This document shows, one piece after another, positions 10,843 to 62,615 of a DNA stretch of 64,000 bases; the stretch's first letter is position 1, and each line of letters begins with the position of its first letter. The notes under the pieces were generated by a model. That model made no database searches. It worked only from the letters and a program-made list of their open reading frames with translations, and was not told the DNA's origin. The stretch is taken from NCBI GenBank assembly GCA_016212095.1, contig JACRHH010000027.1, positions 23,880-87,879 on the forward strand. The letters run 5' to 3'. A program made the translations under genes and the position numbers. Source of the stretch: Nitrospirota bacterium (lineage in GTDB: Bacteria > Nitrospirota > Thermodesulfovibrionia > SZUA-242).

Positions 10843-11213
10843 TTTGCCGCCGTCCTTGTTATCTTGTGTATCCGATCCATGATTGTTATCGGGTCTATCG
10901 GCTTTTCGATGTAACCGTTGCAGCCCGCTTTCATGATCCTTTCCCTGTCTCCGGTCATTGCGTAGGAGGTCACCGCTATTACCGGAATGCTTTCGTCCGC
11001 ATCCGAGTTCCTTATCCTTCTGGTGGTCTCGATTCCGTCGATGCCCGGCAGGTTGATATCCATTATGATGAAGCATGGCTTTTCCTTCACGGCCAGTTCC
11101 ACGCCTTCTTCCCCGCTTCCGGCGGAAATCACTTCATAGCCCGCCCGTTGAAGCGCATATTGAACTATCCTCAGATTGTCCCTGTTGTCTTCCACAACGA
11201 GCACTTTCTTCAC
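10839..11213 (-). CDS. Single-domain response regulator (CheY-like receiver)
   Basis: MKKVLVVEDNRDNL...IIMDINLPGIDG...VTSYA...K receiver signature. 124 aa. Confidence 0.9.
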   Translation of the reverse strand: MKKVLVVEDNRDNLRIVQYALQRAGYEVISAGSGEEGVELAVKEKPCFIIMDINLPGIDGIETTRRIRNSDADESIPVIAVTSYAMTGDRERIMKAGCNGYIEKPIDPITIMDRIHKITRTAAK

Positions 11214-15934: not shown

Positions 15935-16754
15935 ATTGTTTCCTGTAAATCCGCATTCCTTGCGCCATTTCCATGTATCGGCCCGCGATGCCGCGGCCTG
16001 AAAGGGTTTCCTTCACTCCAAGGCAGAGGAACCCGCCGTTTGCAAGGCTTCCGTCAAAAAGCGCGAGCACACGCTCCTTCAGCGCGGCCTTGAAGTAGAT
16101 CAGCAGATTCCTGCAAAGCACCATATGCATCTCGCCGATACCGGCGTCCACGGTCAGGTTGTGCGAGGCAAAGACAATATTGTTTTTGAGCTTTTGCGCC
16201 AGTATGGCGCTGTCGTAACGGGCGGTGTAATAGTCGGCAAAATCCCTTTTTCCGCCTGCCTTCTGGTAGCTCTGGGTGAACTGCTGTATCTTTTCGATGG
16301 GATAAATGCCGTCAGCCGCCTGTTTCAGCGTCTTTTCGTTTATGTCCGTCGCATATATCCTGTAATGGCCTTCAAGCCCCTCTTCGCAAAGAAGAATGGC
16401 CAAAGAGTACGCCTCCTCGCCTGCGGCGCATCCCGCAACCCATATCTTTATGAACGGATAGGTCTTGAGGTGCGGGACAACATCTTCCCGCATTGCCTTG
16501 AAGAATAGCGGATCGCGAAACATCTCGGAAACATTGACGGTTATTCCATCCAGCAGGCAGTTGAACAGCTCGTGGTCGCGCAGCACATGCGCCTGCGCCT
16601 CCGAGAAACTGCCGAAGCCGGAACACTGGAGCCACTGCGTCAGCCGCCGCCTGATGGACGCCTCGGCATATTCCCTGAAGTCATATCCGTGTACCTGGAA
16701 TATGCCTTCCAGAAGGAGCTTTATCTCAATATCTTCAACGTCTTGCCTTTTCAT
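15927..16754 (-). CDS. cheR: CheR-type protein-glutamate O-methyltransferase
   Basis: FREYAEASIRRRL...TVNVSEMFRDP...IWVAGCAAGEEAYSLAILL...IFASHNL...MHMVLCRNLLIYF matches CheR N-terminal and SAM-MTase motifs. ATG 16754 is preferred over TTG 16775. Confidence 0.9.
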   Translation of the reverse strand: MKRQDVEDIEIKLLLEGIFQVHGYDFREYAEASIRRRLTQWLQCSGFGSFSEAQAHVLRDHELFNCLLDGITVNVSEMFRDPLFFKAMREDVVPHLKTYPFIKIWVAGCAAGEEAYSLAILLCEEGLEGHYRIYATDINEKTLKQAADGIYPIEKIQQFTQSYQKAGGKRDFADYYTARYDSAILAQKLKNNIVFASHNLTVDAGIGEMHMVLCRNLLIYFKAALKERVLALFDGSLANGGFLCLGVKETLSGRGIAGRYMEMAQGMRIYRKQYV

Positions 16755-48701: not shown

Positions 48702-49124
48702 ATGTATAACAAGGTCATTCTCGTCGGCAATCTGGTTCGCGATCCAGAAACCCGCTTCACGCCCCAAGGCACGCAGGTTGCAACATTCAGCATCGCCGTA
48801 AACCGCATTTACAAGGTCGGCGACGAGACGAAGGAATAAGTGTCGTACTTCGACATCGTTGTTTTTGGGAAACAGGCGGAGATCACAAGCCAGTATCTGA
48901 GCAAGGGCAGTTCCGTGCTTGTGGACGGACGCCTCAATCAGCGCCGATGGGACGACAAGGACACCGGACAGAAGCGTTCGAAGGTTGAGATAGTGGCGGA
49001 AGTCGTGCGTTTCATGTCTAAAAAAGGTCAGACGCAGGGCGGCTCGCATGGAGCGTCGGAGCCGGAATACAGCGATTCGGATTTCACGCCGCGTGAAGTT
49101 ACCGATGACGAAGTTCCGTTCTGA
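48702..49124 (+). pseudogene. ssb: Single-stranded DNA-binding protein interrupted by an in-frame TAA (48837-48839)
   Basis: [80 protein letters not shown]...DDEVPF. Both halves are in the same frame (48702 and 48840 are both divisible by 3). Confidence 0.85.
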
Positions 49125-49980: not shown

Positions 49981-50160
49981 GCAGTTTTTTAATTGATTTA
50001 CCCTGTTTCTCCGCGTTATACTCCTTCGGGCGGTGGCGTGGGGAATGTTGTAACTCTTCGATAATCCGCAAAATATAGCGCTGTACCCTCTCGTCATTTA
50101 AATTCTCGGCATCAGTCGTTTCGTTTTTGTTGCAGCAGCATCACCTTCAGGAGGATGGGG

Positions 50161-51096
50161 ATGGAAGGCATCAGTTACGGATCGTATGAGTTCACGCTTG
50201 CGGCGCGCGAGCGGCTGGTTCTGCCCGCGTACAAGGGATCGACCTTGCGCGGCGGCTTCGGCCATGCCTTCAGGCGCGTTGTATGCGCTCCGCGAAAACC
50301 TGTCTGCGACGGCTGTTTCCTTAAGGGAAGCTGCGTCTATTCTTACGTCTTTGAAACCCCGCCTCCGTCCGGCTCCTCGATGATGCGCAAATACGAGGCC
50401 GCGCCGCATCCGTTCGTGATCGAACCGTCGGTTGACAGGCGAAGGCAGTACGAGCCGGGGCAGGAGTTGACATTCAACCTTTTACTGATTGGCCGGGCTG
50501 TTGAATATCTTGCGTATTTCATATACGCGTTCTCGGAGCTTGGCGAAATAGGCATCGGCAAGAAACTGGGCAAATTCGAGCTTCGCTCGGTGACAAGCGG
50601 CGGCATTATGGTTTACGACGCAGAAACGCGGCAGGTTCGGAATGCGGAGCCGCGAAAGCTGACGCTGGATCTGGCGGCAGCGCCGGAAATAGTATCCGCG
50701 CCGATGCACCTTTCAGTCGATTTCCTCACGCCCACCCGAATCTTCTACAACAAACAGCTTGCCGCAACACCTGAATTTCATGTGCTGATTCGCGCAATCC
50801 TGCGCCGGATGTCGCTTTTGCACTACTTCCACTGCGGCGGCGATCCGTCGGGCTGGGATTTCCGGGGGATCATCGAACGGGCCGGTGCGGTTGAGATGAA
50901 GAGAAACGGCACGAAATGGCACGACTGGGAGCGATACTCGTCGCGTCAGGATACCAGGATGACGCTTGGCGGATTTATGGGCGATGTTGAATACGAGGGC
51001 GACATTGCGCCGTTTCTGCCGCTGATAAGGGCGGGCGAGGCGCTGCATGTGGGCAAGGGGACGGGGTTTGGGCTGGGGAGGTTTGGGGTTGGATGA
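50161..51096 (+). CDS. cas6: CRISPR pre-crRNA endoribonuclease Cas6 (Cys-cluster subtype)
   Basis: ...GSTLRGGFGHAFRRVVCAPRKPVCDGCFLKGSCVYSYVFE... and the C-terminal glycine-rich loop HVGKGTGFGLGRF. AGGAGG 6 nt upstream of ATG 50161. Confidence 0.85.
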   Translation: MEGISYGSYEFTLAARERLVLPAYKGSTLRGGFGHAFRRVVCAPRKPVCDGCFLKGSCVYSYVFETPPPSGSSMMRKYEAAPHPFVIEPSVDRRRQYEPGQELTFNLLLIGRAVEYLAYFIYAFSELGEIGIGKKLGKFELRSVTSGGIMVYDAETRQVRNAEPRKLTLDLAAAPEIVSAPMHLSVDFLTPTRIFYNKQLAATPEFHVLIRAILRRMSLLHYFHCGGDPSGWDFRGIIERAGAVEMKRNGTKWHDWERYSSRQDTRMTLGGFMGDVEYEGDIAPFLPLIRAGEALHVGKGTGFGLGRFGVG

Positions 51097-51107
51097 ACCG
51101 CTTATGG

Positions 51108-51368
51108 TTAATAGACGTGTTTCCGATGTTTTGCCGTAAGGATATGGACGGCATGGCTTGTCTTGTCAACTTCATAAATGATTCGGTAATCCCCGACACG
51201 AAGGGAATATTCCCCGGAGTGATTGCCCACAAGCGGCTTGCCATGAAATGGATTATCGGCAAGCGACTCGATTCTGGCCAAAATACGGCTGAAAAGCCGC
51301 CGGTCGGCAACATGCAACTCTTCGAGATCGCTTTGCGCTTCTTTCGCAAGCCTGATCTCGAACGTCAT
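51108..51368 (-). CDS. relE: RelE/ParE-family toxin
   Basis: ...NPFHGKPLVGNHSGEYSLRVGDYRIIYEVDKTSHAVHILTAKHRKHVY. Overlaps the antitoxin gene by 4 bp. Confidence 0.85.
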   Translation of the reverse strand: MTFEIRLAKEAQSDLEELHVADRRLFSRILARIESLADNPFHGKPLVGNHSGEYSLRVGDYRIIYEVDKTSHAVHILTAKHRKHVY

Positions 51369-51637
51369 TTAACGCCAACCCGCGCCTTGAATTCCTTGAG
51401 CGAAACCGTTTCGCCCATTTTAACCTGCGCCTTAGCGCGGGCAACAGCATCTCGTTCTTCAATGCTGGAAAGCAGGTCGAGGGTTTCCAGCAGGCCCGCA
51501 AATTCGTCGGAGCTGAGGATGACGGCTTTCTCGACGCCGTTTTTTGTGACGGCAAACCGGTCGTATCTTTCATCGACATCCTTGATGATGGCGGACAGGC
51601 TTTTTTTTGCCTCCGCAAGGGTGATGGTTCGGGTCAT
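51365..51637 (-). CDS. Phd/YefM-family antitoxin
   Basis: MTRTITLAEAKKSLSAIIKDVDERYDRFAVTKNGVEKAVILSSDEFAGLLETLDLL. Confidence 0.85.
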   Translation of the reverse strand: MTRTITLAEAKKSLSAIIKDVDERYDRFAVTKNGVEKAVILSSDEFAGLLETLDLLSSIEERDAVARAKAQVKMGETVSLKEFKARVGVK

Positions 51638-51783
51638 TAATCGTCTCCTTTTGCTGAAAGTTATGACCATAATTATAGGCTATATGGCGCGATATTGGAA
51701 AAACTTGCCGCCGGTCATCACATCAAGAACAAACACCTATGCCAATGGATCGTTGCCGTGGCGGCCCATGAATTGGAACCGCC

Positions 51784-51845
51784 GGATACGATGGCGACAT
51801 CGCGCCGTGTCTGCCGCTGATAAGGGGGAAGGTATGGGGTTGAAG
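51784..51845 (+). pseudogene. cas6: Remnant of a cas6 3' end
   Basis: 51784-51826 matches cas6 50989-51031 at 39/43 nt. It translates to DGDIAPCLPLIRGKVWG*, compared with cas6 EGDIAPFLPLIRAGEALHVGKGTGFG. Confidence 0.75.
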
Positions 51846-51894
51846 GCTGAGGATGCAGCGTTGAAAACTGACTGATAATACAAGGGGGAAGCGC

Positions 51895-52617
51895 ATGAAA
51901 AGTTGGCAAAGATGGGGCTTGGGAGTGCTTGTAATTATTCTGTTAGGAGGGTTATCAGTTTATGTTGGCTCACTGATACCTGATGGAATGCTCAAAAAAA
52001 TCGAAAATGCCGGCATTATTCTGGGCTATGCTTTCACAATCATTCCAATCGGTTTTGCACTCGTTGCCTGGTTTTCCAAAAAACAGCTTCGCAGTTTTTT
52101 TCACAGCAACTATTTTACGGGGCTTGGAACACCTTTCCCGCTTGGAAGCAAGCAGATTGATGGCCTGCTGATTCCTGTCAGCCGGGAAGAAGTTCCCAAG
52201 TGGCTGCTTTGTCATCTTCGGCCAAAGCATGTTGCTTTTATCTACACAGTTAAGACCGCTGAGATCGTTAAAAAACTTATTGATGAATTTTCCAAGGATA
52301 TCAAGTTCTACCAGATTGTATCCGGTTCGCCAAGCGGGGAAGATGTAGTTGATCCTTATGATCTGCCGGGCATAAAAACGATGGCGGCGAAATGGATACG
52401 GCGCTTGGAAGCCGAAGGCTTGAGCTTGGACACGATTTATGCTGATACGACAGGCGGCACGGTTCCAATGTCGCTTGGGGTTTTTCAAGCTGCGGAGGAA
52501 AGCGGCATTTCGAGCATATACGTAATCGGCAAACACGAAGGCGGGCGTATTCTCAAACCGGAGGTGTCAGATGAGGGGAAGCCAATTCTTATCAGCGATA
52601 GAGGGGAGGGTAAATGA
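51895..52617 (+). CDS. Two-TM membrane protein with CARF-like cytoplasmic domain (candidate type III ancillary effector)
   Basis: Hydrophobic helices at about residues 7-28 and 39-60. Rossmann-like strand/helix alternation and the IYADTTGGTVPMSLG motif. The stop overlaps the cmr1 ATG (ATGA). Confidence 0.6.
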   Translation: MKSWQRWGLGVLVIILLGGLSVYVGSLIPDGMLKKIENAGIILGYAFTIIPIGFALVAWFSKKQLRSFFHSNYFTGLGTPFPLGSKQIDGLLIPVSREEVPKWLLCHLRPKHVAFIYTVKTAEIVKKLIDEFSKDIKFYQIVSGSPSGEDVVDPYDLPGIKTMAAKWIRRLEAEGLSLDTIYADTTGGTVPMSLGVFQAAEESGISSIYVIGKHEGGRILKPEVSDEGKPILISDRGEGK

Positions 52618-53846
52618 TGTCACAACCAACCGTAATTGAGGCTGAATACAGCATCGTCACGCCAATGTTTCTGGGTGATGCGAAACAAGAGGCTACCGAG
52701 ATAAGGCCTCCTTCGATCAAAGGCGCACTCCGGTTCTGGTGGCGAGCGCTTAACTGGAGTCGAATGTTGGCGCAAAACGGGAATAACGTAACTGAAGCGT
52801 TAAAGACACTCCATAGCGAAGAAGGTCGGTTGTTCGGTCAGGCTGGCGATGAAGACCGTGGTGGGCAGGGGTGTTTTTTGATGAGTGTTACGTCCATCGG
52901 CATTACCCTGCGTAGCAAGGAGCAACTTAACGGTAACGACTCGCCAGCACCACTTGGCAAGTGGCGCCCCTATCTGGTTGGCCTCGGCCTTGCGAGTTAT
53001 AACAAAGAGGAAAAGAAGTCGAAGTACAACCGTAGCGCAATCACAAGCGGTAAATTCAAGGTTCGAGTTCGTTCTCGGCCTGAAACCACTCTGGCTGACG
53101 TCAAGTCCATTGAAGAAAGCCTGCTGCTATTCGGCTTGCTTGGAGGTTTAGGCAGCCGCACACGGCGCGGACTTGGTTCGGTTTCTATTACGAGTCTTTC
53201 CGGCGGCAAGCTGTCTGCGCCTAGCGGCATCGAGGAATGGAAAGCGGCGATTCAGAAACTTACAGGAACACCCATAACCGCACCCGAACCGCCGTTTTCC
53301 GCATTCTCGTCAGTAACCCGCATGGATATGTCTCTAAAAGGCAAAAACGCATGGAACTTGCTGGAGAAAACCGCAAGTGAAATGATGCGTTACCGTTCTT
53401 GGGGGCAGGACAGGAATAACACCGGAACACACAAAGTTAATGGCATTGAACTGTTTGTGGATGATCATGCAATCATGCTTAACGCGATTGCAAACGGAAC
53501 TCCGCCGACAGTGCTTCCAGATCGTATCGTGTTCGGACTGCCTCATAATTATTTTTTCTCTTCGATAACCGGTGCTGAAAAAATGAAAAAAGCCGAGATT
53601 GCACCAGATTCAGAAGGGCGTACCCGCCGGGCATCACCACTGTTCATCCACATCCACAAGTTTAAGGATAACGATTTTGCAGTAATTCAAACGCTGTTTC
53701 AATCCATGTTTCTTTGCCCATCGGATTATGTCGCTGTAAAAGCGGAGAAGCTCCGCCCCACACACCGGCTCATTCCATCGGTGGATTGGGGGCATATCCG
53801 GTGCTATCTCGACCGCTTTGCGGACAGAGAGGTGGTGTTGCCATGA
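52614..53846 (+). CDS. cmr1: Type III-B RAMP protein Cmr1
   Basis: ...YSIVTPMFLGDAKQEATEIRPPSIKGALRFWWRAL... and a second RAMP half with GLLGGLGSRTRRGLGS. Confidence 0.85.
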   Translation: MMSQPTVIEAEYSIVTPMFLGDAKQEATEIRPPSIKGALRFWWRALNWSRMLAQNGNNVTEALKTLHSEEGRLFGQAGDEDRGGQGCFLMSVTSIGITLRSKEQLNGNDSPAPLGKWRPYLVGLGLASYNKEEKKSKYNRSAITSGKFKVRVRSRPETTLADVKSIEESLLLFGLLGGLGSRTRRGLGSVSITSLSGGKLSAPSGIEEWKAAIQKLTGTPITAPEPPFSAFSSVTRMDMSLKGKNAWNLLEKTASEMMRYRSWGQDRNNTGTHKVNGIELFVDDHAIMLNAIANGTPPTVLPDRIVFGLPHNYFFSSITGAEKMKKAEIAPDSEGRTRRASPLFIHIHKFKDNDFAVIQTLFQSMFLCPSDYVAVKAEKLRPTHRLIPSVDWGHIRCYLDRFADREVVLP

Positions 53847-55765
53847 AATACCTGCACTTCACCATCGGCCCGGTTCAGGGATTTGTGGCACAGGCGCGCC
53901 GGACGCGAGATTTCTGGGCCGGGTCTTTTATCCTGTCTTGGCTGTCCGGCATCGCCATGAAGTCGGTTGAAAAGAATGACGGCAAAGTCATTTTCCCTTT
54001 AGTTGCTTCAAGTTATCTGAATTGGCTGGAAGAAATAAAGGGAACAGGAATGAAGCCACGGCAGGGTGCGGCTCCGAATCGTTTTATGGCCGAGATACCG
54101 GATGCAGGTTTCGATCCGGCATTAGTTGAGCAAAGTGTTAGATCTGCCTGGACTGAGTTGGCGGAAAAAGTCTGGCAAAACGATTTGAGCAGCATGGGAA
54201 TGACCTCTAACCAGCGAAAGATTTGGGATGAGCAGGTAAACAAATTCTGGGAAATTTCATGGGCGATAACGGACACCCGCTCAGAATCCAGCATCCTTGA
54301 TCGACGGAAAAACTGGCGGACTTCATTCCCGCCTGAACAGGGCGGCGTCAAGTGCATGGTGATGGACGCTTGGCAGGAGCTTTCCGGCAGCGAAAGGCCG
54401 GGTAAGCAAGTGAGTGATTTCTGGCTAAAAATACGGACTGATGGCCAAAACGGCATGAAAACCGATTTGCGAGATGGCGAGCATCTTTGCGCTATCGCGT
54501 TTATAAAGCGCAGGTTTGCCCGCTGCTTTCATAAAGTATCGGCAACAATGCCTGGCGGTTGGCGCATAAGCGGTTGGAATGTTTCCCCAAACGTTCCATC
54601 GGTGGTCTACATGGCAGCCGCTCACTGGATTGCCGACACCATCAAGGCTGGCAAGCCGGAAATGATCAAAAGATTTCATGATGCCGCATTCATGCTCACC
54701 CGCGAGCATGGAGAAACCAATTCCAACATACGGTGTATTGAAGATGCCCTGCATGGCAAAGATGATCCGACAAGACAATTTGCCGCGCTGGACGGCTCAG
54801 TGTTCTTTGAGACAATGCTTTCCAGTCCAAACATGTATCCGGACGCTGACGAAACAACGGTTAGCGCTACGTTGGCACGTCTCAATGAACTCATAAAAGA
54901 AACCAGCCTTGAGCCTCCAAGTCCATTTTACGCAATGCTGCTTATGGACGGCGATTCGCTTGGCAAGCATATGGGCGATGAGGAAAAGCAGGTGCCGATC
55001 AGTAAGGCGTTGGAAATATTCACCCGCGATGCGTCGAAGATAGTTCAGAAGAACAGCGGCTTCCTGATTTATGCCGGTGGTGACGACGTGCTGGCTATTC
55101 TGCCGGTGGAGGACGCCTTGAAGTGCGCCGCAGAGCTTCAACAGCATTACAATAACTGCTTTGCCGGTAGCGGGGTTTCCTCAACACTTTCCGGTGCTAT
55201 CGAGTTTGCACACATCAAAATGCCTCTCACACGTGTGCTGCGTGACGCGCACTCCCTGCTTGACGATATTGCCAAGGATGAGCGCGGACGCGATGCCGTG
55301 GCTGTCCGCGTCTGGAAACCCGGCGGAAAGGCGGTGGAGTGGGCGATGCCGTGGGAAAAGGCATTTGCCTCCGATGGCAAGGTTGAAATCCAGAAAATCG
55401 CCGACGAGTTCAGAGCGCAAGACGAAGATGCCAGATACAGCAATAAGTTCTTTTTCAAAATACGGGAACTTGTTGGGGTGATTGGGCAGGGAAAATTGCT
55501 GAGTTACGATGACATGGTAAGTCTGATGGCTGCCGAGTATCTCCATTCCGGCATAAACGAAGGCAGGGATCCCAAAATATCGAGGGGCGAGGCGGAAATT
55601 CTCACCAAAAGGCTTCTGGATCAATGCCAGCAGTTGAGAAGGATTGTCACGGATAAACCGGGTGGCCGAACCGATGTTAGCTTTGACTCGCTGCCGGGCG
55701 CGATGTTTCGAGCCGATGGCGCGTTGCTGGTGCGCTTTCTGGCGCAAAAGGGGGTGGAACTATGA
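53843..55765 (+). CDS. cas10: Cas10/Cmr2, short form without HD domain, cyclase GGDD intact
   Basis: MKYLHFTIGPVQGFVAQARRTRDFWAGSFILSWL (Cmr2 core N-terminus) ... FLIYAGGDDVLAILP. 640 aa. ATGA overlaps at both ends. Confidence 0.9.
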   Translation: MKYLHFTIGPVQGFVAQARRTRDFWAGSFILSWLSGIAMKSVEKNDGKVIFPLVASSYLNWLEEIKGTGMKPRQGAAPNRFMAEIPDAGFDPALVEQSVRSAWTELAEKVWQNDLSSMGMTSNQRKIWDEQVNKFWEISWAITDTRSESSILDRRKNWRTSFPPEQGGVKCMVMDAWQELSGSERPGKQVSDFWLKIRTDGQNGMKTDLRDGEHLCAIAFIKRRFARCFHKVSATMPGGWRISGWNVSPNVPSVVYMAAAHWIADTIKAGKPEMIKRFHDAAFMLTREHGETNSNIRCIEDALHGKDDPTRQFAALDGSVFFETMLSSPNMYPDADETTVSATLARLNELIKETSLEPPSPFYAMLLMDGDSLGKHMGDEEKQVPISKALEIFTRDASKIVQKNSGFLIYAGGDDVLAILPVEDALKCAAELQQHYNNCFAGSGVSSTLSGAIEFAHIKMPLTRVLRDAHSLLDDIAKDERGRDAVAVRVWKPGGKAVEWAMPWEKAFASDGKVEIQKIADEFRAQDEDARYSNKFFFKIRELVGVIGQGKLLSYDDMVSLMAAEYLHSGINEGRDPKISRGEAEILTKRLLDQCQQLRRIVTDKPGGRTDVSFDSLPGAMFRADGALLVRFLAQKGVEL

Positions 55766-56937
55766 CGAGCAGAACATTGCGTTTATCGGCTCTTGATACA
55801 TGGTTTTTCCGCGAATCCCGTCCGCATGGTTCAGTAGGCGGCACGGAGCTTGACAGCGTTTTCCCGCCGCCGCCACGAACCGTGGCCGGAGCAGTGCGAA
55901 CCATGATCGGAAATCATGCAGGTGCGGACTGGGATGATTTCAAAAAATGCAAAGAAACACCGTATTTACGAAACGAAATTGATCTAAGGGCTGAAATCGG
56001 TTGGGGCGATGACACCGGCAAACTCGCCATCAATGGGCCATGGCTCACTCTTAATGGCTCACGACTTTATCCCGCCCCCAGCTTTCTGGTGAAATCCGAG
56101 AACTCTGGCGTGGTGAGACTTGCAATAGGCCCGTCAGCGGTTTGTGATCTCGGTTGCCTTCACCTGCCGATTCTCGGAACTGGTTCCTCAGTAAAACCTA
56201 TTGAAAATGCCTGGCTTACACATGAAGCATTTAACCGTGTGCTTGGCGGTGGTGTGCCGGACATTGCTGATATTCTGTGCGAATCGCAACTTGTCGCAAT
56301 AGAACCGCGACTTGGCATAGCCCGCAATAACGCGGTGCGAACGGCTGAAAACGGAATGCTTTATCAAGCACGGCACATCCGTCCAGATGCTAAATTTGCT
56401 TTGGAAGTGGATATTTCCGGAATAGCTGAGCGTTTGCATCCTTCAGGTGGCGCAACACGTTTCGGTGGCGAAGGCCGTCTGGCTCTGGTTGAATCATTGC
56501 CAACCTCTCCGTTGTTTCCGCAACCGCCGGAGCCACTTGCTGATACCAAAGGCGTTATTTTGATTTTGCTGACGCCTTCCGACACAGGCGGCTGCTGGCT
56601 GCCAAACTCCAGTTTCAAGCTGATTGAAGAAGACGGCGTCTGCTATTTTGACGGAAAGATTAATGGAATCGGTCTTCGAATCGTATCGGCTGTTTTGGGG
56701 AAGGCGATTCGGGAGGGTGGCTGGGATTTGGCGCAGCAGAAACCGCGCCCGGCGCGAAGCCTTATTCCTGCTGGCAGTGCTTGGTACTGCACCGTAGCTG
56801 GCGGCGACATCAAGTCCGCCATTCAGGCGCTTCATAACTCTCAAATTGGTTTGGAAACATCGCTTGGCCGGGGGCATTTGGCTGTCGGCCTTTGGAATAA
56901 CTCGGAATATCCTGATACCTCAAGGAGGGGAATATGA
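55762..56937 (+). CDS. cmr3: Type III-B Cmr3
   Basis: LRLSALDTWFFRESRPHG.....SVFPPPPRTVAGAVRTMIG, the typical Cmr3 N-terminus. Confidence 0.85.
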   Translation: MTSRTLRLSALDTWFFRESRPHGSVGGTELDSVFPPPPRTVAGAVRTMIGNHAGADWDDFKKCKETPYLRNEIDLRAEIGWGDDTGKLAINGPWLTLNGSRLYPAPSFLVKSENSGVVRLAIGPSAVCDLGCLHLPILGTGSSVKPIENAWLTHEAFNRVLGGGVPDIADILCESQLVAIEPRLGIARNNAVRTAENGMLYQARHIRPDAKFALEVDISGIAERLHPSGGATRFGGEGRLALVESLPTSPLFPQPPEPLADTKGVILILLTPSDTGGCWLPNSSFKLIEEDGVCYFDGKINGIGLRIVSAVLGKAIREGGWDLAQQKPRPARSLIPAGSAWYCTVAGGDIKSAIQALHNSQIGLETSLGRGHLAVGLWNNSEYPDTSRRGI

Positions 56938-57875
56938 ACAACGCAATTTTAGGTTTACTTGCTGAAACATCCATCCATGCCGGAAGCGGCCAGTCCGTGG
57001 GCGGCGTTGATCTTCCGATTCAGCGCGAAGGACATAATAATTGGCCATGTGTCTTTGGCTCGGCAGTGAAAGGCGCGCTTCGGGCGCGTGCGGAAGACAT
57101 TAAAATGCCTGACATCGACATAGCCTTTGGGCCACGGCCTGCTTCCGGTCAGGCCTCCGATCATGCGGGGGCGCTCGCGGTTGGCGACGCCCGGCTTCTG
57201 CTTCTTCCGGTTCGTTCGCTCACCGGCTATTTCAAGTGGGTAACATGCCCTGCGGCGTTGACACGGCTGAAGCGGGATGCATTCAGACTTGGTCTCGACA
57301 TCGCAATGCCGGATTCCCCGGATGTTCCAGCAGACGACACGGCAATTGTTCCAGATGGGGCGGCCAGCGGCGGCATGTTTCTTGAGGAATACCGATTTAA
57401 TGCGATTCCACAAAATCTTGCGGACGTCATTACATCTCTTGCCAAGTTGATGAAAGGTGAGGACTCAACGGAACGCCTAACTTGCCAACTTGTAATCGTC
57501 AGCGACGATCAATTTTCTTTCTTCGCTCAATATGCAACGCCCGTAGCCGCCCATGTCCGGATCGATAACGGAAAAAAGACCGTGGCAAAAGGCGCGCTTT
57601 GGTACGAAGAGACTTTACCACCCGAAACCCTTATGTACGTTGGACTTGGTGCGTTCCCTTCTAGGAGAAACGGTTCCGCTATTTCCGGAAAGGAAATTCT
57701 TGATTCAACGGTTCAGAGCTTGTTTGGAGCGCACCCTTACCTGCAACTTGGCGGAAATGAGACTGTAGGAATGGGCTGGTGTCGAGTTGCGGTAAATCGT
57801 ACATCCATTGTGCCAAGCGGCGGCCAAGTGGCGGTTACCGAAAGCCAAGCCGTAGTTGCGGCACAGGAGGTTTGA
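56934..57875 (+). CDS. cmr4: Type III-B Cmr4 (backbone RAMP, target-RNA cleavage subunit)
   Basis: LGLLAETSIHAGSGQSVGGVDLPIQRE...FGSAVKGALRA...LQLGGNETVGMGW. Confidence 0.9.
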   Translation: MNNAILGLLAETSIHAGSGQSVGGVDLPIQREGHNNWPCVFGSAVKGALRARAEDIKMPDIDIAFGPRPASGQASDHAGALAVGDARLLLLPVRSLTGYFKWVTCPAALTRLKRDAFRLGLDIAMPDSPDVPADDTAIVPDGAASGGMFLEEYRFNAIPQNLADVITSLAKLMKGEDSTERLTCQLVIVSDDQFSFFAQYATPVAAHVRIDNGKKTVAKGALWYEETLPPETLMYVGLGAFPSRRNGSAISGKEILDSTVQSLFGAHPYLQLGGNETVGMGWCRVAVNRTSIVPSGGQVAVTESQAVVAAQEV

Positions 57876-57876
57876 T

Positions 57877-58296
57877 ATGCAGACAATTCAGCAAAAACGG
57901 GCCGCAGCCGCGCTTGCTGCGGTGAGAGAAGCTTCATCAGAACTCTCCGGCGACGACAGGAAAAAATATAAAAGCTACGCGAGCCAGTTTCCGGCCATGA
58001 TCCGAATGAATGGTCTTGGCCCTGCGGCAGCATTCTTCCGAGGCAAGGATGAGTTATACAAGAGTTTGTACGATACGCTTGGTTCATGGCTTAGAAGTGA
58101 AAACGGCCCCTATTACGGGGTTGACGATCTTATGGACGGAATCACAACGCGCAACCAGAACGAATACCGCATGGCTCAGGTTGAAGCGGTTGTCTTCATG
58201 GAGTGGGTCAAGAAACTCGCAAATGCCTTCATGGAAGAGCCAGTAAACAGCACTGTTCAGGGAGCAGGTGAAGCCGTCACAGAGGATGCATCATGA
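57877..58296 (+). CDS. cmr5: Type III-B Cmr5 (small subunit)
   Basis: ...YKSYASQFPAMIRMNGLGPAAAFF...; 139 aa; position between cmr4 and cmr6. Confidence 0.8.
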   Translation: MQTIQQKRAAAALAAVREASSELSGDDRKKYKSYASQFPAMIRMNGLGPAAAFFRGKDELYKSLYDTLGSWLRSENGPYYGVDDLMDGITTRNQNEYRMAQVEAVVFMEWVKKLANAFMEEPVNSTVQGAGEAVTEDAS

Positions 58297-59411
58297 AAAC
58301 TCCTCTATATTGTGCTCACGATGCTCCACTATCCAAACCTCAAGATGCTCATTCCGGTCTGTGGTTCGACAGGTTTTTTAATAGGTTTACAGATAGTTGG
58401 GAGACAGAAAAAGAAGGTGCGAAGCTGAAATGGATTGTGAAAACAGTCGAGGGCTCATGCTGCGACATGGCGGCAGTAAAATCTTTTTCGCTTAGACAAT
58501 ATGAGATTGCAGCTTCCCTTGGCGGTGAAAGCCGGGCGTTTACAACTTCATGGCGTTTTGCCTCCGGGCTTGGACTGCCGCATCCGGTCGAGAATGGTTT
58601 TGCTTGGCATCCGACACTTGGAACGCCATATCTGACGGGAGCGGCGGTAAAAGGTCTTGTTCGAGCATGGGTGGAGGTTTGGGAGCCAAGTTTTGATGAT
58701 CGAATCGAACGAGATAATCGATTGAAAAGCTGGTTTGGTGAGATCGATCAGTCCGGAGGACTGATTTTCTTCGACGCAATTCCTGTCGCCCCTCCCGCGC
58801 TGTCTCCCGATGTTATGACCCCTCACATGGGAAAGTGGTATGAATTGGGCGGCGAAATCGGTGTAAATCCGGAAAACGAACCGAAAAGTCTACCGGCGGA
58901 CTGGCATGATCCGAACCCTATTCCATTTTTAACCGTGAAGAATGGGACGTTCCTGTTCAGCATTGCGCCAAGAAATCAAAAGTTCACAGATGATGTGCCG
59001 CTTGCAATGGACTCGCTCAAGCAGGCTCTCGAATGGCTAGGGGCTGGCGCGAAAACTGCGGCTGGATATGGACGAATGGAGCCAGATGACGTTGCCAGAA
59101 ATTCGCTGAAGGTTGAAGCCGACAAGCGGATGAAAGACCGCTTGGAAAGAGAGAGCGTTGCCAGAATGTCGCCTCTTGAGCGTGAGTTGCATGAGCTTGC
59201 AAAAAATAATTCGCAAGATACAGAAGTATTTTTTCTGAAAGCGCTTGAAGACGGGCGTTGGAATGGTGACAATGCCCGCGTTGTGGCCGAAAAGATTCAA
59301 GCCATGATGCAGGAAAAGGACAAGTGGAAACCGGTATGTAACAGCAAGGAGGAGAAAAAGCTTAAATTGCATAGACGTACATTGGCAGTAATGAGGTATC
59401 TTGGGCGGTGA
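58293..59411 (+). CDS. cmr6: Type III-B Cmr6 with about 110-aa helical C-terminal extension
   Basis: ...SGLGLPHPVENGFAWHPTLGTPYLTGAAVKGLVRAW...GGLIFFDA...GAKTAAGYGRM, then a 110-aa charged extension. Confidence 0.85.
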   Translation: MKTPLYCAHDAPLSKPQDAHSGLWFDRFFNRFTDSWETEKEGAKLKWIVKTVEGSCCDMAAVKSFSLRQYEIAASLGGESRAFTTSWRFASGLGLPHPVENGFAWHPTLGTPYLTGAAVKGLVRAWVEVWEPSFDDRIERDNRLKSWFGEIDQSGGLIFFDAIPVAPPALSPDVMTPHMGKWYELGGEIGVNPENEPKSLPADWHDPNPIPFLTVKNGTFLFSIAPRNQKFTDDVPLAMDSLKQALEWLGAGAKTAAGYGRMEPDDVARNSLKVEADKRMKDRLERESVARMSPLERELHELAKNNSQDTEVFFLKALEDGRWNGDNARVVAEKIQAMMQEKDKWKPVCNSKEEKKLKLHRRTLAVMRYLGR

Positions 59412-59420
59412 GGCTCCGGC

Positions 59421-59492
59421 ATGACAACGTATTTTGTTACACGCCATCCCGGCGCGCGTGAGTGGGCGGCTGAGGAGGGCGTTATCGTGGAT
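59421..59492 (+). pseudogene. csx16: csx16 5' stub (about 24 codons), fused in frame to a transposase fragment
   Basis: MTTYFVTRHPGAREWAAEEGVIVD matches my recollection of the Csx16 (VVA1548-family) N-terminus. The rest of the gene is absent. Confidence 0.6.
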
Positions 59493-59780
59493 GAGCAGGT
59501 GGAGCTTTTCTTCAAGTGGATCAAGCAGAACCTGCGGATAAAAAGCTTTTACGGAACATCGGAAAACGCCGTCAAGACACAGATATGGATTGCGGTGTCG
59601 GTTTATGTGCTGGTGGCCATCATGAAAAAACGGCTGAATATCGAGGCAAGCCTCTACACAATTCTACAGGTGCTGAGCGTAACCGCTTTAGAAAAAATGC
59701 CGTTAATTCGACTACTTGCAAAACAGGATTACAGAACAGAGATGGGCGATTATCGTAACTCATTGTTTTTATTCGATTAA
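59493..59780 (+). mobile_element. IS4/IS5-type DDE transposase C-terminal fragment (IS remnant)
   Basis: ...VELFFKWIKQNLRIKSFYGTSENAVKTQIWIAVSVYVLVAIMKKRL...LYTILQVLS is the conserved C-terminal block of IS4-family transposases. No N-terminal or catalytic part is present. Confidence 0.8.
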
Positions 59781-60030
59781 ACGTTGGGACGCTAGTGATT
59801 TGAACATATAGTGCTGAAACTGCTTGGCCGGTTCAGCGGAGCCGAAAGCGTAACGCTCGATGGTTACAGAAACCCACGGCCACCGGGAAATCGCAGGGTG
59901 TGGGGAACTTCGCGGTTTATGGTTGAACAGATGTATCCGCTTGGATGGGTGAAGGTATCGGTGAATTAAATGCATCGCATTATGAGCGAGTGATAATGGT
60001 GCAGTATAATGCCTGAAGAGGATTGAGGAC

Positions 60031-60393
60031 ATGAAGCGAGATATTACGGATTACATTGCCGACATGTTTGATGCGATGAACAAAGCCCGTCAATTTGTCG
60101 AGGGAATGGATTTTGACTCATTTGCGGCTGACGACAAGACCGTGTACGCGCTGATCCGGGCGCTGGAAGTCATCGGGGAGGCGGCCAAGCGAATACCGGA
60201 CGACGTTCGCGCCCGATTCGCGCATGTTCCATGGAGGGACATGGCCGGAATGCGTGACGTGCTGATTCATGATTATTTCGGAGTGGACGCCGATACCGTA
60301 TGGCGAACAGTTACGGAAAAAATCCCTGAAGTCCTGCGTGATATGGAGACGATTTTGAAGGAGTTGCGCAATGAAGCGAATCGACGAGATTAA
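60031..60393 (+). CDS. hepT: HepT-like (DUF86/HEPN) toxin
   Basis: RX4HXY motif in [14 protein letters not shown]. 120 aa. Confidence 0.85.
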
Positions 60394-60664
60394 GTCTGCT
60401 CTGAAAGCCGAGAAATCCCGTCTTGAGCTGGAATACGGCGTGAGCGAAATAGGTCTTTTTGGTTCAAGAGTCACCGGCATTGCAACCGACGCCAGCGACA
60501 TCGACATTCTTGTTGATTTTCACCGATCAATCGATCTGTTGCGGTTTGTCCACCTGAAAAATGAACTGTCCGACCTGCTTGAATTGCGGGTGGATCTTGT
60601 GATGAAGCGCGCCGTCAAGCCCGAAATCGGCAGGCATATCACGAATGAGGCTGTGTTCATCTGA
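60371..60664 (+). CDS. mntA: MntA-like nucleotidyltransferase antitoxin
   Basis: [23 protein letters not shown] (GSxxxG...DxD). Overlaps hepT by 23 bp. Confidence 0.85.
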
Positions 60665-60685
60665 ACAGACCCATTACTCGGTGAT

Positions 60686-61178
60686 ATGGCGAATATTTAC
60701 CTGACCGAGCAGGGTTCAGTGGTCGGAAAGACCGGCAACAGGCTGATTGTCCGCAAGGACGACGTTGTTTTGCTCGATGTGCCGTGCGACAAGATAGATT
60801 CCGTGCTGATCTTCGGCAATGTGCAGGTCACCACGCAGGCGGTGCATGAGATGTTCGAGCACGGTATCGAGCTTGCCATGCGATATTCAGGAGGAATTCC
60901 GCGCCTCGGTTGACCGGTTCACGCTCTACCTCCTGAACAACCGGATGCTTAACGCGGAGGATTTCTACGAAAACAACAAGGACGGGGCCGTGTACCTCTT
61001 GCGCGACGCCATGAAAAAGTATTTTGTGGAATACGAAAAGCATTTTACGCGGGAATTCACGCATCCGGTATCGGGGGAGACGACGAACATCCGGAAATGC
61101 TTCCGGAGTCAGGCCGAAAGACTGGCGGCGCACATCAAGGGCGGCCCGGCATATGTTCCGTTTCTGTTCGAGGGGTAA
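60686..61178 (+). pseudogene. cas1: cas1 with large internal out-of-frame deletion (N-terminal about 65 aa joined to C-terminal about 95 aa)
   Basis: MANIYLTEQGSVVGKTGNRLIVRK...HGIELAM, then a frame change near 60880, then DIQEEFRASVDRFTLYLLNNRML...PFLFEG. Total 493 bp, compared with about 1 kb for an intact cas1. Confidence 0.8.
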
Positions 61179-61180
61179 AT

Positions 61181-61453
61181 GTGTTCCACGTTGTTACTTA
61201 CGATATTTCCGATGATCGTAAAAGAGACCGGGCGGCAAAGGTTTTGCTCGATTACGGCAAGCGTGTACAATACAGCGTGTTTGAGTGCGTGATGGACAAC
61301 GAGGCGCTGAAAACGCTTGTCTCACGGTTGAGCGGACTAGCGAGCGGCGAGGACAGCATTCGCGTATATTCGCTATGCTCAGGGTGCGAGAGGCGGATTG
61401 AGGTGATCGGAACCGGCGCGGTGACAAAAGACGAAAATGTCATTATTTTATAA
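61181..61453 (+). CDS. cas2: CRISPR-associated endoribonuclease Cas2
   Basis: VFHVVTYDISDDRKRDRAAKVLLDYGKRVQYSVFEC...IRVYSLC. GTG start 2 nt after the cas1 stop. Confidence 0.85.
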   Translation: MFHVVTYDISDDRKRDRAAKVLLDYGKRVQYSVFECVMDNEALKTLVSRLSGLASGEDSIRVYSLCSGCERRIEVIGTGAVTKDENVIIL

Positions 61454-61542
61454 CGGGTTTACGGAGATTTTCCATTGCGCCAAATAGCGCAGGACTTACG
61501 GTTGGCAGTGGATGCGCCTGTAATGACGCAGAAAATTGGTCT

Positions 61543-61570
61543 TTGACAGATGAATTATTGATGTTATCAT
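61543..61570 (+). promoter_or_regulatory. Sigma70-like promoter in the CRISPR leader
   Basis: TTGACA (61543-61548), 16-nt spacer, TATCAT (61565-61570), about 80 nt upstream of repeat 1. Confidence 0.45.
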
Positions 61571-61652
61571 TGCGGATGTGATGGTACGGGAAGGGAGGTT
61601 ACGGGAAAACGAGCTATAACTTATTGGAAAAACGCATGGAATTGATGGCGGA

Positions 61653-62382
61653 CAGAGAAACCGAGACTTAACGAATAAAGGATTGAGACCGGTCAGGTCT
61701 GTGGTTATATCGCCGGGGCCGGAAATTGGCAGAGAAACCGAGACTTAACGAATAAAGGATTGAGACCAAGCCAAGACATCATACTTACGCTCCGCGCGAA
61801 TTATCAGAGAAACCGAGACTTAACGAATAAAGGATTGAGACAAAAAAACGCCGGGCAGACGAACAACAAAAATACTCCGACCTCAGAGAAACCGAGACTT
61901 AACGAATAAAGGATTGAGACAGAGATTCGGGCGAACGGAACCTTAAGGCCATCCATGCACATTTCCAGAGAAACCGAGACTTAACGAATAAAGGATTGAG
62001 ACGGTTGACGTGCAGTGCGACTACATCAAGGAGTCGCTGGGGCACAGAGAAACCGAGACTTAACGAATAAAGGATTGAGACTATATTTCATCTTTCCATA
62101 GGCCACTTTCTGCTCAGTTCCCCAGAGAAACCGAGACTTAACGAATAAAGGATTGAGACTAGGCAATATGCTAAAGGGGTATCGCTGGTTTACCGCAGAG
62201 AAACCGAGACTTAACGAATAAAGGATTGAGACTAATGACGTTCGCTGTCTGGTTCGCCCGGCTGAAACAGAGAAACCGAGACTTAACGAATAAAGGATTG
62301 AGACAGGCCGCCGAGTTAAATGGTAGGAGCTTCCGGATCAGGGAACAGAGAAACCGAGACTTAACGAATAAAGGATTGAGAC
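61653..62382 (+). CRISPR. CRISPR array: 10 identical 37-nt repeats, 9 spacers (35-45 nt)
   Basis: Repeat CAGAGAAACCGAGACTTAACGAATAAAGGATTGAGAC at 61653, 61730, 61805, 61884, 61966, 62045, 62123, 62196, 62268 and 62346. The 3' ATTGAGAC resembles the 8-nt crRNA 5' handle (AUUGAAAC-type). This gives + strand transcription, with the leader next to cas2. Confidence 0.97.
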
Positions 62383-62615
62383 GAATTTCGATAAGACGCT
62401 CGTGCGGATCGTTTCGGAAGAATCCGGCAGGTTGCGTCTGGAAATTGAGAAAGTTGGCGTCGAGACGGCAAAATCTCGTGCGGAGCTTATCTGATGGATG
62501 TTTATCTTTTGGTGTGGTCAGATTGACGTGATGATCGCCCTCTTCAGGCAGTCCCTGAAATAATCAAGCCTTTATCCCAGGTTAGCGGGGGGGCATTGCG
62601 CCCCCCATCATGTTC

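Follow-up and report, generated by a model that had tools for sequence, protein, structure and literature searches.

A Cam1-type III-B CRISPR-Cas locus in a Nitrospirota-like genome with intact interference and signalling genes and decayed adaptation and signal-off genes

In a Nitrospirota-like genome, a type III-B (Cmr) CRISPR-Cas locus on the chromosome contains several visibly damaged genes, which raises the question of how much of it could still work and where its parts came from. We analyzed it within a window of 64,000 nucleotides, the whole stretch of DNA under study, and searched the 39-contig draft assembly of the genome (Table 1). Judged from its sequence, the locus is a Cam1-type III-B system, which is a known kind, and its decay is of an ordinary sort. 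Overall, we consider it fairly likely that the half for interference and signalling is still structurally intact whereas the parts for adaptation and signal shut-off are dead, that it works by the mechanism proposed below, and that its origin is mosaic. One stored spacer, though, matches the cell's own genome.

Table 1. Features of the type III-B locus, with positions in the window.
Feature	Position	Strand	Basis or remark
cas6 upstream region	49993..50154	+	left edge of sequence common with a close relative's CRISPR locus is 49993
cas6, full length	50155..51096 (start maybe 50161)	+	Pfam CRISPR_Cas6 8e-20; TIGR01877
RelE/ParE-family toxin	51108..51368	-	Pfam ParE_toxin 4.6e-15
Phd/YefM antitoxin	51365..51670 (likely start 51637)	-	Pfam PhdYeFM_antitox 1.4e-15
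cas6 3'-end remnant, ~13-16 codons	51773..51826	+	direct repeat D5; translation YDGDIAPCLPLIR
Cam1-like effector, two predicted TM helices and CARF domain	51895..52617	+	phmmer vs PDB 8t64
cmr1	52614..53846	+	TIGR01894 1.2e-12; aligns with orthologues over residues 1-410
cas10/cmr2, 640 aa, HD-less	53843..55765	+	Cmr2_N, palm2 and TIGR02577 matches
cmr3	55762..56937	+	Pfam Cas_Cmr3 1.8e-58, full model length
cmr4, backbone RNase subunit	56934..57875	+	TIGR02580 5.2e-61
cmr5	57877..58296	+	Pfam Cas_Cmr5 1e-29
cmr6	58293..59411	+	TIGR01898 4.2e-32; aligns with orthologues over residues 1-370
Chimeric ORF: csx16 start and IS4-family transposase C-terminal end	59421..59780	+	Cas_VVA1548 residues 4-28; IS4 model positions 289-331
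Non-coding stretch, weak similarity	59823..59962	+	vs sequence preceding cas1 in G345 (type III-A locus)
HepT, HEPN RNase toxin	60031..60393	+	Pfam HepT-like 3.6e-30; RDVLIHDY motif present
MntA, nucleotidyltransferase antitoxin	60371..60664	+	Pfam Polbeta and NTP_transf_2; GS-x10-DxD motif present
cas1 pseudogene	60686..61178	+	N fragment to ~60880, C fragment from ~60867, different frames
cas2, intact, GTG start	61181..61453	+	Pfam CRISPR_Cas2 8.1e-23
Leader	61454..61652	+	promoter-like site at 61543-61570, the best in the region
CRISPR array	61653..62382	+	10 identical 37-nt repeats ending ATTGAGAC; spacers 35-45 nt
Spacer 5, self-derived	62003..62044	+	42/42 vs G000 C37:68113-68154
Possible degenerate terminal (11th) repeat	62415..62451	+	local alignment: both ends kept, 69-nt spacing; weak

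The initial annotation described the locus as an island between housekeeping genes. The borders that it gave were borne out, with DUF507b ending at 49980 and leuA, on the minus strand, at 62616, but the implied simple insertion was not. At 87% nucleotide identity, one relative has three tRNA genes and SurA/PrmA after DUF507b, all of which lie on other contigs in this genome; in the nearest relative whose left flank was available, DUF507 is succeeded by tRNA genes rather than by leuA, and no simple empty site was found. Homology to one relative (L129) stops at 49979, and blastn aligned window positions 49993-51091 with positions 9832-10949 of a metagenome contig (L128) at 85%. A promoter-like site lies at 49993-50022, upstream of cas6.

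Eight consecutive genes, about 9.2 kb in all, show no frameshift or truncation and keep their catalytic motifs, and the structural changes that can be seen all lie in the remaining 3 kb or so. Every Cmr protein can be aligned over its whole length with its orthologues, those of Cas10 having the same length. Alignment to Cmr2 structures revealed that Cas10 keeps both cyclase motifs, DGD and GGDD (LLMDGDSLG and YAGGDDVLAILP), and alignment to the Cmr4 of 3x1l/9x25 revealed that D26 is conserved in Cmr4 (VDLPIQRE motif). The interference genes, which had been called intact, and the signalling genes are so at the sequence level, being full length with these catalytic residues kept. The five ATGA start/stop overlaps reported earlier, at 52614, 53843, 55762, 56934, and 58293, were all found; at the cmr4/cmr5 junction (TGAtATG), the cmr5 ATG lies 1 nt past the cmr4 stop, with an AGGAGG Shine-Dalgarno sequence upstream. 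On the basis of the intact reading frames, the operon may still be selected and the system may still interfere. A search of the genome found no second cas10. The product of cas6 aligns with orthologues across residues 6-298 and is 87% identical to a metagenome homologue; the gene proper is intact despite a separate copy of its 3' end, a previously noted remnant of which 41 nt (51786-51826) are 93% identical to 50991-51031 and which also matches the cas6 of L128 (84%).

The effector gene encodes a protein that phmmer matched to the Cam1 structure (PDB 8t64) with an E-value of 2.7e-13 over residues 62-211. Like NhCam1 of Nitrosococcus halophilus (Baca et al., 2024; PMC10808066), it is a small membrane protein with a homologous C-terminal CARF domain and an acidic residue, E36, at the conserved position ahead of the pore helix, and the equivalents of NhCam1 S75, T97, and Y180 are kept in the alignment to the structure, read against that paper (PMC10808066). 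Whereas NhCam1 has one helix and 206 aa, this protein has 240 aa and two predicted transmembrane helices (about residues 7-28 and 39-60), a long form that is common in the family (163 representative clusters), including among metagenomic relatives. The equivalents of N76 and of K160, an essential residue of NhCam1, are not conserved but replaced by R and T, respectively; with the second helix, this makes Cam1 membership imperfect. As in Cam1-associated systems, the gene belongs to a type III locus whose Cas10 is cyclase-competent; here, however, it is translationally coupled to cmr1 and the accompanying ring nuclease is destroyed. A homo-oligomer model scored 0.57, as against 0.00 for the best of three controls; of 30 proteins solved as pairs, 20 reached that mark, compared with one of 23 solved as single chains. 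Three runs agreed on at least 80% of contacts with a partner pLDDT of at least 75, and the CARF-dimer part of the model may be memorized from the Cam1 structure already solved.

The gene families suggest how such a system would work. The array would be transcribed from the leader promoter, and Cas6 would cut the repeats to yield crRNAs with an 8-nt AUUGAGAC 5' tag. Cmr1-6 and Cas10 would bind complementary transcripts, which Cmr4 would cut through D26. Since Cas10 has no HD nuclease, the sole other output would be cyclic oligoadenylate, made at its GGDD palm domain. This messenger, probably cA4, would bind the Cam1-like membrane protein at its CARF dimer, and the protein would form an oligomeric pore, so that cA4-gated membrane depolarization and growth arrest would be the output expected by analogy with NhCam1 systems.

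The suspicion that the system lacks its ring nuclease proved well founded. Experiments have confirmed Csx16 as a cA4 ring nuclease, and ring nucleases co-occur with Cam1 in 81% of loci (Hoikkala et al., bioRxiv 10.1101/2024.09.24.614671). As described initially, csx16 is a stub fused to an IS fragment: about 24-28 of about 96-104 codons are left, in frame with the final portion of an IS4-family transposase. These residues are 56-79% identical to Csx16, which has 96-115 aa in relatives, and the stub occupies the canonical position after cmr6, but roughly three quarters of the protein has been lost, which disqualifies it as a functional member. The IS4 remnant that cuts csx16 is itself dead, and neither another csx16 nor another copy of the IS piece was found in the draft genome, where a copy of either could have been lost at contig ends. 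For the Csx3 and APE2256 families, the control searches matched no genome at all, and these two negatives therefore carry no weight. With Csx16 truncated and not replaced, the signal would persist until the target was cleaved, the messenger was diluted out, or an unknown enzyme removed it.

The array holds nine spacers, as had been counted. Its direction was read from its place downstream of cas2, the best promoter-like site in the leader (TTGACA, a 16-nt spacer, TATCAT, and an extended TG; 11/12 matches), a canonical-type 3' tag, and decay at the far end. Spacer 5 matches perfectly inside the host's own nucleotide-sugar dehydrogenase gene, but the homologous genes of class relatives only at 82-93%; on this match, it is taken from the gene of the cell itself or of a conspecific. 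Its crRNA has the same sense as the dehydrogenase mRNA and should thus not pair with it, which would explain why the spacer is tolerated; being self-derived and in sense orientation, this one of the nine spacers would be useless for defence. The internal deletion of cas1 was also confirmed: about 165 codons (about residues 66-230 of the closest Cas1) are lost and the frame is shifted, the two fragments matching positions 1-63 and 227-283 of Pfam Cas_Cas1 and residues 1-65 and 231-330 of the Cas1 of locus L058. Because cas1 is frameshifted and without its core, the locus's own adaptation is dead and its own module would not extend the array.

The earlier view that the system is frozen, with no spacer acquisition, therefore stands as far as its own cas1 is concerned, but the suggested search for a second cas1 found two intact ones, though their repeats differ. 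One, on contig C10, is a full-length type I-G Cas4/Cas1 fusion (Cas4g/Cas1g; 795 bits); the other, on C12, is the full-length Cas1c of a type I-C remnant (517 bits). Adaptation could thus be supplied in trans, and the array would not be frozen if the type I-G Cas4/Cas1-Cas2 or the type I-C Cas4-Cas1-Cas2 remnant added spacers to it; alternatively, Cmr might borrow type I-G crRNAs. The type I-G array, with at least 17 repeats over two contig ends, and the similar 3' tags of the three repeat families (ATTGAGAC, ATTGAAGC, and ATTGAAAC) fit such an exchange. Yet these tags differ at one or two positions, the 37-nt repeat and its leader are unrelated to the type I-G and I-C repeats beyond the last 8 nt, no other array in the genome carries this repeat, and Cas1-Cas2 integrases as a rule recognize the leader and repeat of their own array, all of which makes either route very unlikely. 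The two toxin-antitoxin cassettes, RelE/Phd and HepT/MntA, are present as annotated, and RelE/Phd is not a chance lodger: the cas6-end/relE/phd junction recurs in a relative of the same class, G194, at 68% nucleotide identity (toxin, 66% identical to the same-position gene; antitoxin, 72%); a promoter-like site lies at 51701-51672, by phd. Both pairs are intact with their motifs and stand on either side of the cam1-cmr6 block, and locus L030 carries a HepT homologue just downstream of cmr6, as might be expected if the cassettes were functional addiction modules that bracket the effector core and stabilize it against deletion. We regard this as quite improbable, given that HepT/MntA and RelE paralogues occur elsewhere in the genome, as is typical of freely mobile cassettes, and that G345 has the homologous frame intact and no such cassette.

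It could also be argued that the locus as a whole is silent or has already ceased to function, and that the cmr and cam1 frames are intact because decay set in recently rather than because selection is ongoing. Three neighbouring functions are broken (csx16, cas1, and the IS itself), the type I-C remnant, the second CRISPR locus of the genome, is decayed too, and in the homologous locus of G194 cas1 is split, an IS200 has inserted, and csm2-5 are absent. The self-derived spacer fits as well, such spacers being reportedly a classical correlate of degenerating systems. We nevertheless consider a silent locus unlikely: the eight consecutive genes are undamaged, the ten repeats are identical, the leader keeps its strong promoter-like site, and the harmless orientation of the self spacer means that inactivation is not forced.

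Turning to the origin of this partly intact system, we suggest that it is probably a mosaic, in which a cmr1-6/csx16 cassette of a mainly gammaproteobacterial clade sits within a Nitrospirota-type cas6/cas1/cas2/array frame, a reading based on discordant identity levels rather than on trees with topology tests. The best Cmr4 matches are gammaproteobacterial (59%), and in 389 other genomes of the class one Cmr4 reaches 56% and the rest at most 41%. Several Cmr4-related loci carry csx16 immediately 3' of cmr6, and type III-B loci with HD-less Cas10 from Gammaproteobacteria and others (L032, L038, L047, L052, L093, and L099) share the order cmr1-cas10-cmr3-cmr4-cmr5-cmr6-csx16, 45-59% protein identity, equal protein lengths, and repeats ending ATT[A/G]AGAC. 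Unlike in those loci, csx16 is here truncated by an IS remnant, cam1 stands upstream of cmr1, and cas6, cas1, and cas2 are of another lineage, closest to Nitrospirota type III-A. Cas6 identity is at most 38.5% among 80 loci chosen by Cmr4 similarity, as against 52-57% to the loci of G345 (L119) and G194 (L118), which have similar repeats and to which Cas1 is 62-77% and Cas2 52-57% identical; the 87% identical Cas6 belongs to the third such type III-A locus (L128), where the HD domain of Cas10/Csm1 follows cas6. These Nitrospirota loci share the order cas6, effector genes, cas1, cas2, array and repeats ending ...GAATAAAGGATTGAGAC, and G194 also has the RelE/Phd pair beside the cas6 3' end, but their effectors are csm1-5 with an HD-bearing Cas10. 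The nearest relatives of the Cam1-like protein (36-41%), however, occur in the host's class and in metagenomes, which blurs the left edge of any swapped cassette. G345 further differs in having a reverse-transcriptase remnant before cas1, and a weak blastn similarity (66% over 140 nt, E 3e-5) links the non-coding stretch 59823-59962 to positions 15929-16068 of that locus, which overlap the remnant.

Profile searches with Pfam and NCBIfam models (the latter TIGR01894, TIGR02577, TIGR01888, TIGR02580, TIGR01881, and TIGR01898) recognised a plus-strand series of genes consisting of cas6, a CARF protein gene, cmr1, cas10/cmr2, cmr3, cmr4, cmr5, and cmr6. As judged from these matches, the locus has the defining features of type III-B, with Cas10/Cmr2, Cmr1, and Cmr3 to Cmr6 encoded in one operon beside a CRISPR array. 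The initial annotation had described the operon as a chain of ATGA start/stop overlaps, and inspection of the sequence confirmed all five of them (52614, 53843, 55762, 56934, and 58293). The end of cmr1 lies 3 nt past the cas10 start, and the probable start of cmr5 is the ATG at 57877, 1 base past the cmr4 stop codon and preceded by AGGAGG. Every Cmr protein aligned end to end with its orthologues in 80 related loci. Alignment to the Cmr4 of 3x1l/9x25 revealed that D26, the aspartate for target RNA cleavage, is retained within VDLPIQRE, and alignment to the Cmr2 of 3w2v revealed retention of the Cas10 cyclase motifs MDGD and YAGGDDVLAILP (GGDD). An HD domain on Cas10 is an optional feature of the type III-B family. 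The Cas10 encoded here (640 aa) opens directly with Cmr2_N, from residue 3, and therefore lacks the HD nuclease domain; its orthologues are equally long. Cmr6 carries a C-terminal extension of ~110 aa past the RAMP core, which is conserved in related loci, where alignments reach residue 370 of 372.

Features of the type III-B locus and its surroundings (window coordinates)
Feature	Position	Strand	Remarks
ssb	48702-48839 and 48840-49124		two ORFs with an in-frame stop between them
CRISPR-Cas locus	50155-62382		flanked by the DUF507 genes, the second ending at 49980, and by minus-strand leuA, ending at 62616
RelE/ParE toxin	51108-51368	minus	Pfam ParE_toxin, 4.6e-15; between cas6 and cas6 remnant
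Phd/YefM antitoxin	51365-51637	minus	Pfam PhdYeFM_antitox, 1.4e-15; between cas6 and cas6 remnant
cas6 3' remnant	51773-51826		41-54 nt; repeats 50991-51031 at 93% identity; cas6 proper is complete
Cam1-like protein	51895-52617	plus	240 aa; hydrophobic helices at residues ~7-28 and ~39-60 (hydropathy scan), then CARF domain
cmr6	58293-59411	plus	
csx16-IS4 chimeric ORF	59421-59780		first ~24-28 Csx16 residues, running in frame into the C-terminal end of an IS4-family transposase
HepT	60031-60393		Pfam HepT-like, 3.6e-30; HEPN Rx4HxY motif as RDVLIHDY
MntA	60371-60664		Pfam NTP_transf_2, 1e-11; MNT GSx10DxD motif as GS...DID
cas2	61181-61453		intact
Promoter-like site in leader	61543-61570		TTGACA, 16 nt, TATCAT, extended TG
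Spacer 5	62003-62044		

The CARF domain of the protein encoded ahead of cmr1 matches that of crystallised Cam1 (8t64_A; phmmer E 2.7e-13, query residues 62-211), a cA4-gated type III effector that depolarises the membrane (Baca et al., PMC10808066). An exhaustive search yielded 163 representative clusters of Cam1-like relatives, among which a short, NhCam1-like form of ~200 aa with one helix can be told from a long form of ~230-270 aa with two helices; the window protein belongs to the long form. Whereas NhCam1 possesses a single N-terminal TM helix with the acidic pore residue D17, two hydrophobic helices are predicted here. In the long-form alignment a conserved acidic position (LD-x-AG), Glu36 in the window protein, is located just before helix 2, and the point where the short forms begin aligning suggests that E36 is equivalent to D17. 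Reading the 8t64 alignment against the published residues (PMC10808066), we found equivalents of the NhCam1 ligand contacts S75, T97, and Y180 to be kept; N76 is replaced by Arg and the essential K160 by Thr. By sequence, this effector appears to be a divergent representative of the long Cam1 form, for which cA4 binding and membrane depolarisation are predicted. The exact protein is encoded on no contig of the searched collection.

A four-copy predicted structure of the Cam1-like protein scored 0.57 (best control 0.00); of the proteins with solved structures, 20 of 30 pairs and 1 of 23 single chains scored that high. Model runs share at least 80% of their contacts, with pLDDT of at least 75. 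Our test criterion was the Cam1 architecture, in which two CARF dimers form a tetramer that has a TM bundle; the predicted interfaces comprise a symmetric CARF-CARF contact (residues 185-217), a portion of the model that may be recallable from solved Cam1 structures, and a TM contact (residues 6-57).

Next to the effector operon, csx16 survives only as a stub. The chimeric ORF matched positions 1-25 of the Csx16 domain (Cas_VVA1548/TIGR02620, ~90-100 aa), and Csx16 in relatives is 96-115 aa long. The 3' part of csx16 is absent from the window and from the rest of its genome, a 39-contig draft of 2.97 Mb, in which we detected neither a second csx16 nor any further copy of the IS fragment. Biochemical work has established Csx16 as a ring nuclease specific for cA4, and 81% of Cam1 loci contain a ring nuclease (bioRxiv 10.1101/2024.09.24.614671). 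The DUF1874 ring nuclease family was not found in the genome, a negative to which a control search gives some weight; the Csx3 and APE2256 families also had no match, a result that carries no weight because their controls were blank in every genome.

The adaptation genes are unevenly preserved. Adjoining the intact cas2, cas1 consists of an N-terminal fragment (Pfam positions 1-63) and a C-terminal fragment (227-283) in differing frames, and is devoid of positions ~64-226, the region of the conserved Glu and His. Residues ~66-230 of the closest Cas1, a 333-aa protein from a Desulfocapsa MAG (locus L058), have no counterpart in the window. Because they are fragments, both Csx16 and the Cas1 integrase fail family membership; such decay, through IS insertion and deletion, is ordinary.

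The initial annotation had proposed searching for a second cas1/cas2 that could supply adaptation in trans, and two sets were found on other contigs. A complete type I-G system (Cas3g, Cas8g2, Cas7g, Csb2, a Cas4g/Cas1g fusion, and Cas2) occupies C10:1-13013 and the end of C38, its array of at least 17 repeats being spread over two contig ends. On C12, a type I-C locus is reduced to cas4-cas1c-cas2 and has no effector genes. Adaptation supplied in trans can thus be envisaged; what counts against it is that the repeats of the III-B, I-G, and I-C arrays resemble one another in the final 8 nt only, and even there differ at 1-2 positions. The C10 locus had also been considered as a second type III system with an RT-Cas1, an assignment we rejected since the locus is type I-G and the fusion is Cas4/Cas1; the genome carries a single copy of cas10. 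Genes for 'mobile mystery protein A/B' are inserted between the type I-G csb2 and adaptation genes. Upstream of the type I-C remnant, C12:1564-5032 contains an ATPase gene (weak OLD/retron-effector-like matches) and UvrD-like helicase fragments, which may represent another defence system, possibly Gabija-like.

The array comprises ten identical 37-nt repeats, with the 3' end ATTGAGAC, and nine spacers (35-45 nt); the last repeat may be followed by one or two degenerate units. The promoter-like site in the leader was the top one of the whole 12.9-kb scan. Plus-strand transcription of the array is indicated by this site, the possibly degenerate far end, the location downstream of cas2, and a 3' tag of canonical type. 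Querying phage and plasmid collections with the whole array (blastn, distant mode) returned no match, and neither the 37-nt repeat nor a 27-nt part of it matched metagenome contigs exactly. Against 390 class genomes, the array matched repeats related to its own and homologues of the gene targeted by spacer 5, with no other convincing protospacer.

Spacer 5 was the only spacer to match its own genome: all 42 of its 42 bases recur at C37:68113-68154 (L109:9914-9955), within a minus-strand nucleotide-sugar dehydrogenase gene (L109:8725-10410; TIGR03026 above cut-off) that is flanked by ordinary chromosomal genes. Given that the homologous genes of class relatives match it at only 82-93%, the spacer derives from own-lineage or conspecific DNA or RNA. 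Its crRNA has the same sense as the dehydrogenase mRNA and therefore does not pair with it, leaving an antisense transcript as the sole possible target. Because its 3' flank and the crRNA tag are not complementary, such a transcript would register as non-self; we identified no convincing antisense promoter. Counted from the leader, this spacer is number five, which implies that the lineage made at least five acquisitions before adaptation stopped.

Both toxin-antitoxin pairs that had been noted inside the island are present. A RelE/ParE-fold toxin is accompanied by a preceding Phd/YefM antitoxin, and the overlapping HepT and MntA genes, toxin first, are sited between the IS stub and cas1. A plus-strand 260-aa ORF at 51093-51875 was rejected as a gene, being a shadow of the minus-strand RelE/Phd genes. 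The position of the RelE/Phd pair is not unique to this island. G194, which belongs to the same class and has a type III-A (Csm) locus, shows a 41-codon fragment of the cas6 3' end directly next to a convergent relE-phd pair (L118, G194:C4, 14210-14332 and 13657-14210); the fragment is a second copy, ~820 nt downstream of full-length cas6. RelE and Phd are 66 and 72% identical between the two genomes, whose junctions are collinear and share 68% nucleotide identity. The duplication of cas6 3' ends around inserted DNA in both genomes suggests that this end is a recurrent recombination point.

We compared the borders of the locus with those of related genomes. Four family-level relatives (G001-G003 and G018) keep the S6-SSB-S18-DUF507 block, have different genes downstream, and lack leuA nearby; they leave the borders undefined because they are too distant. 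A closer relative (L129, ENA ERZ27250187) is 87% identical across the AdoHcyase-S6-SSB-S18-DUF507 block, up to window position 49979. Beyond DUF507 it encodes tRNA-Lys, tRNA-Arg, and tRNA-His followed by SurA/PrmA, whose counterparts in the window's genome are on contigs C16 and C38. The locus occupies a synteny breakpoint, with its left edge at ~49981-49993. An empty site with an intact DUF507-leuA junction, which had been suggested as a means of defining the island, did not occur among the relatives compared. No tRNA genes are present within window positions 40000-64000, and an Rfam scan of the island matched no family. The window's ssb is split, versus an uninterrupted 140-aa SSB in L129; this in-frame stop hints at either real decay to a pseudogene or a sequence error, which touches the trust placed in single-base features of the assembly.

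Ancestry appears to differ between parts of the locus. On a metagenome contig of a close relative (L128, Logan SRR22388055; 90% identical to the flagellar region of C14), Cas6 is 87% identical as protein, and nucleotide identity is 85% across window positions 49993-51091; there, cas6 occupies another place in the chromosome, with the HD domain of a Cas10/Csm1 coming next. Among class relatives, the closest Cas6 (52-57% identity), Cas1 (62-77%), and Cas2 (52-57%) are those of G194 and G345, the latter also with a type III-A locus; in these genomes they and a repeat much like the one here go with csm1-5. By contrast, the nearest Cmr4 proteins are gammaproteobacterial, at up to 59% identity. Among 389 other class genomes, one Cmr4 reached 56%, in a MAG labelled uncultured Nitrospiraceae bacterium, and the remainder were at 41% or below. 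Loci picked by Cmr4 similarity have Cas6 identities of at most 38.5%, and several carry csx16 directly after cmr6; their repeats end in ATTAAGAC or ATTGAGAC.

The mismatch, as read from identity levels rather than from tested trees, suggests replacement of a Csm module by a cmr1-6/csx16 cassette within a Nitrospirota-type frame. Candidate scars of the left and right junctions are, respectively, the cas6 remnant and the csx16-IS stub. Two similarities fit the exchange without proving it: positions 59823-59962 weakly resemble the region ahead of cas1 in G345, and in L058 an RVT_1 reverse transcriptase (10207-11139) is encoded directly upstream of cas1. G345 retains an RT remnant in the same place (L119 16015-16203), so the frame may descend from an RT-linked adaptation module; a tblastn search with the L058 RT detected no such remnant in the window. 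We tentatively propose, as a reading a little more doubtful than probable, a recent hybrid in which a Cmr/Csx16 cassette from a mainly gammaproteobacterial clade took the place of Csm in a Nitrospirota cas6/(RT-)cas1-cas2/array frame, leaving visible candidate scars.

In operation, crRNAs processed by Cas6, expected to be ~37-45 nt long and to begin with AUUGAGAC, would direct Cmr onto complementary transcripts, which Cmr4 would cut. Cas10, having no HD nuclease, would signal through cyclic oligoadenylate alone; the Cam1-like pore would then depolarise the membrane and arrest growth, and with Csx16 gone the signal would have no dedicated off switch. If the locus is such a hybrid, its Cmr complex is now supplied with crRNAs by an array and a Cas6 that had evolved alongside Csm, the locus is a natural ring-nuclease knock-out of a Cam1 system, and its self-derived spacer is harmless only owing to strand.

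Singly, the parts are of described kinds (type III-B Cmr, Cam1, Csx16, HepT/MntA, RelE/Phd, and a decayed cas1). The interest of the locus lies in three of its features. Because its effector cassette and its cas6/adaptation frame differ in apparent ancestry, it is a concrete candidate for III-A/III-B effector-module exchange, here from Csm to Cmr, with close relatives at 85-90% nucleotide identity on hand for comparison. The natural loss of Csx16 through an IS event beside a Cam1 effector could reveal whether a membrane-depolarising effector is tolerable without a dedicated off switch. The self-derived spacer, a perfect match in a non-pairing orientation, illustrates the tolerance of type III RNA targeting for own-genome spacers.

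The type III-A locus of G194 (L118, G194:C4, 7169-13561) is itself decayed. We detected no csm2-5 within this interval, the HD part of Cas10 is separate from its main part, two ORFs make up cas1, and cas1 and cas2 have an IS200/IS605 transposase gene between them.
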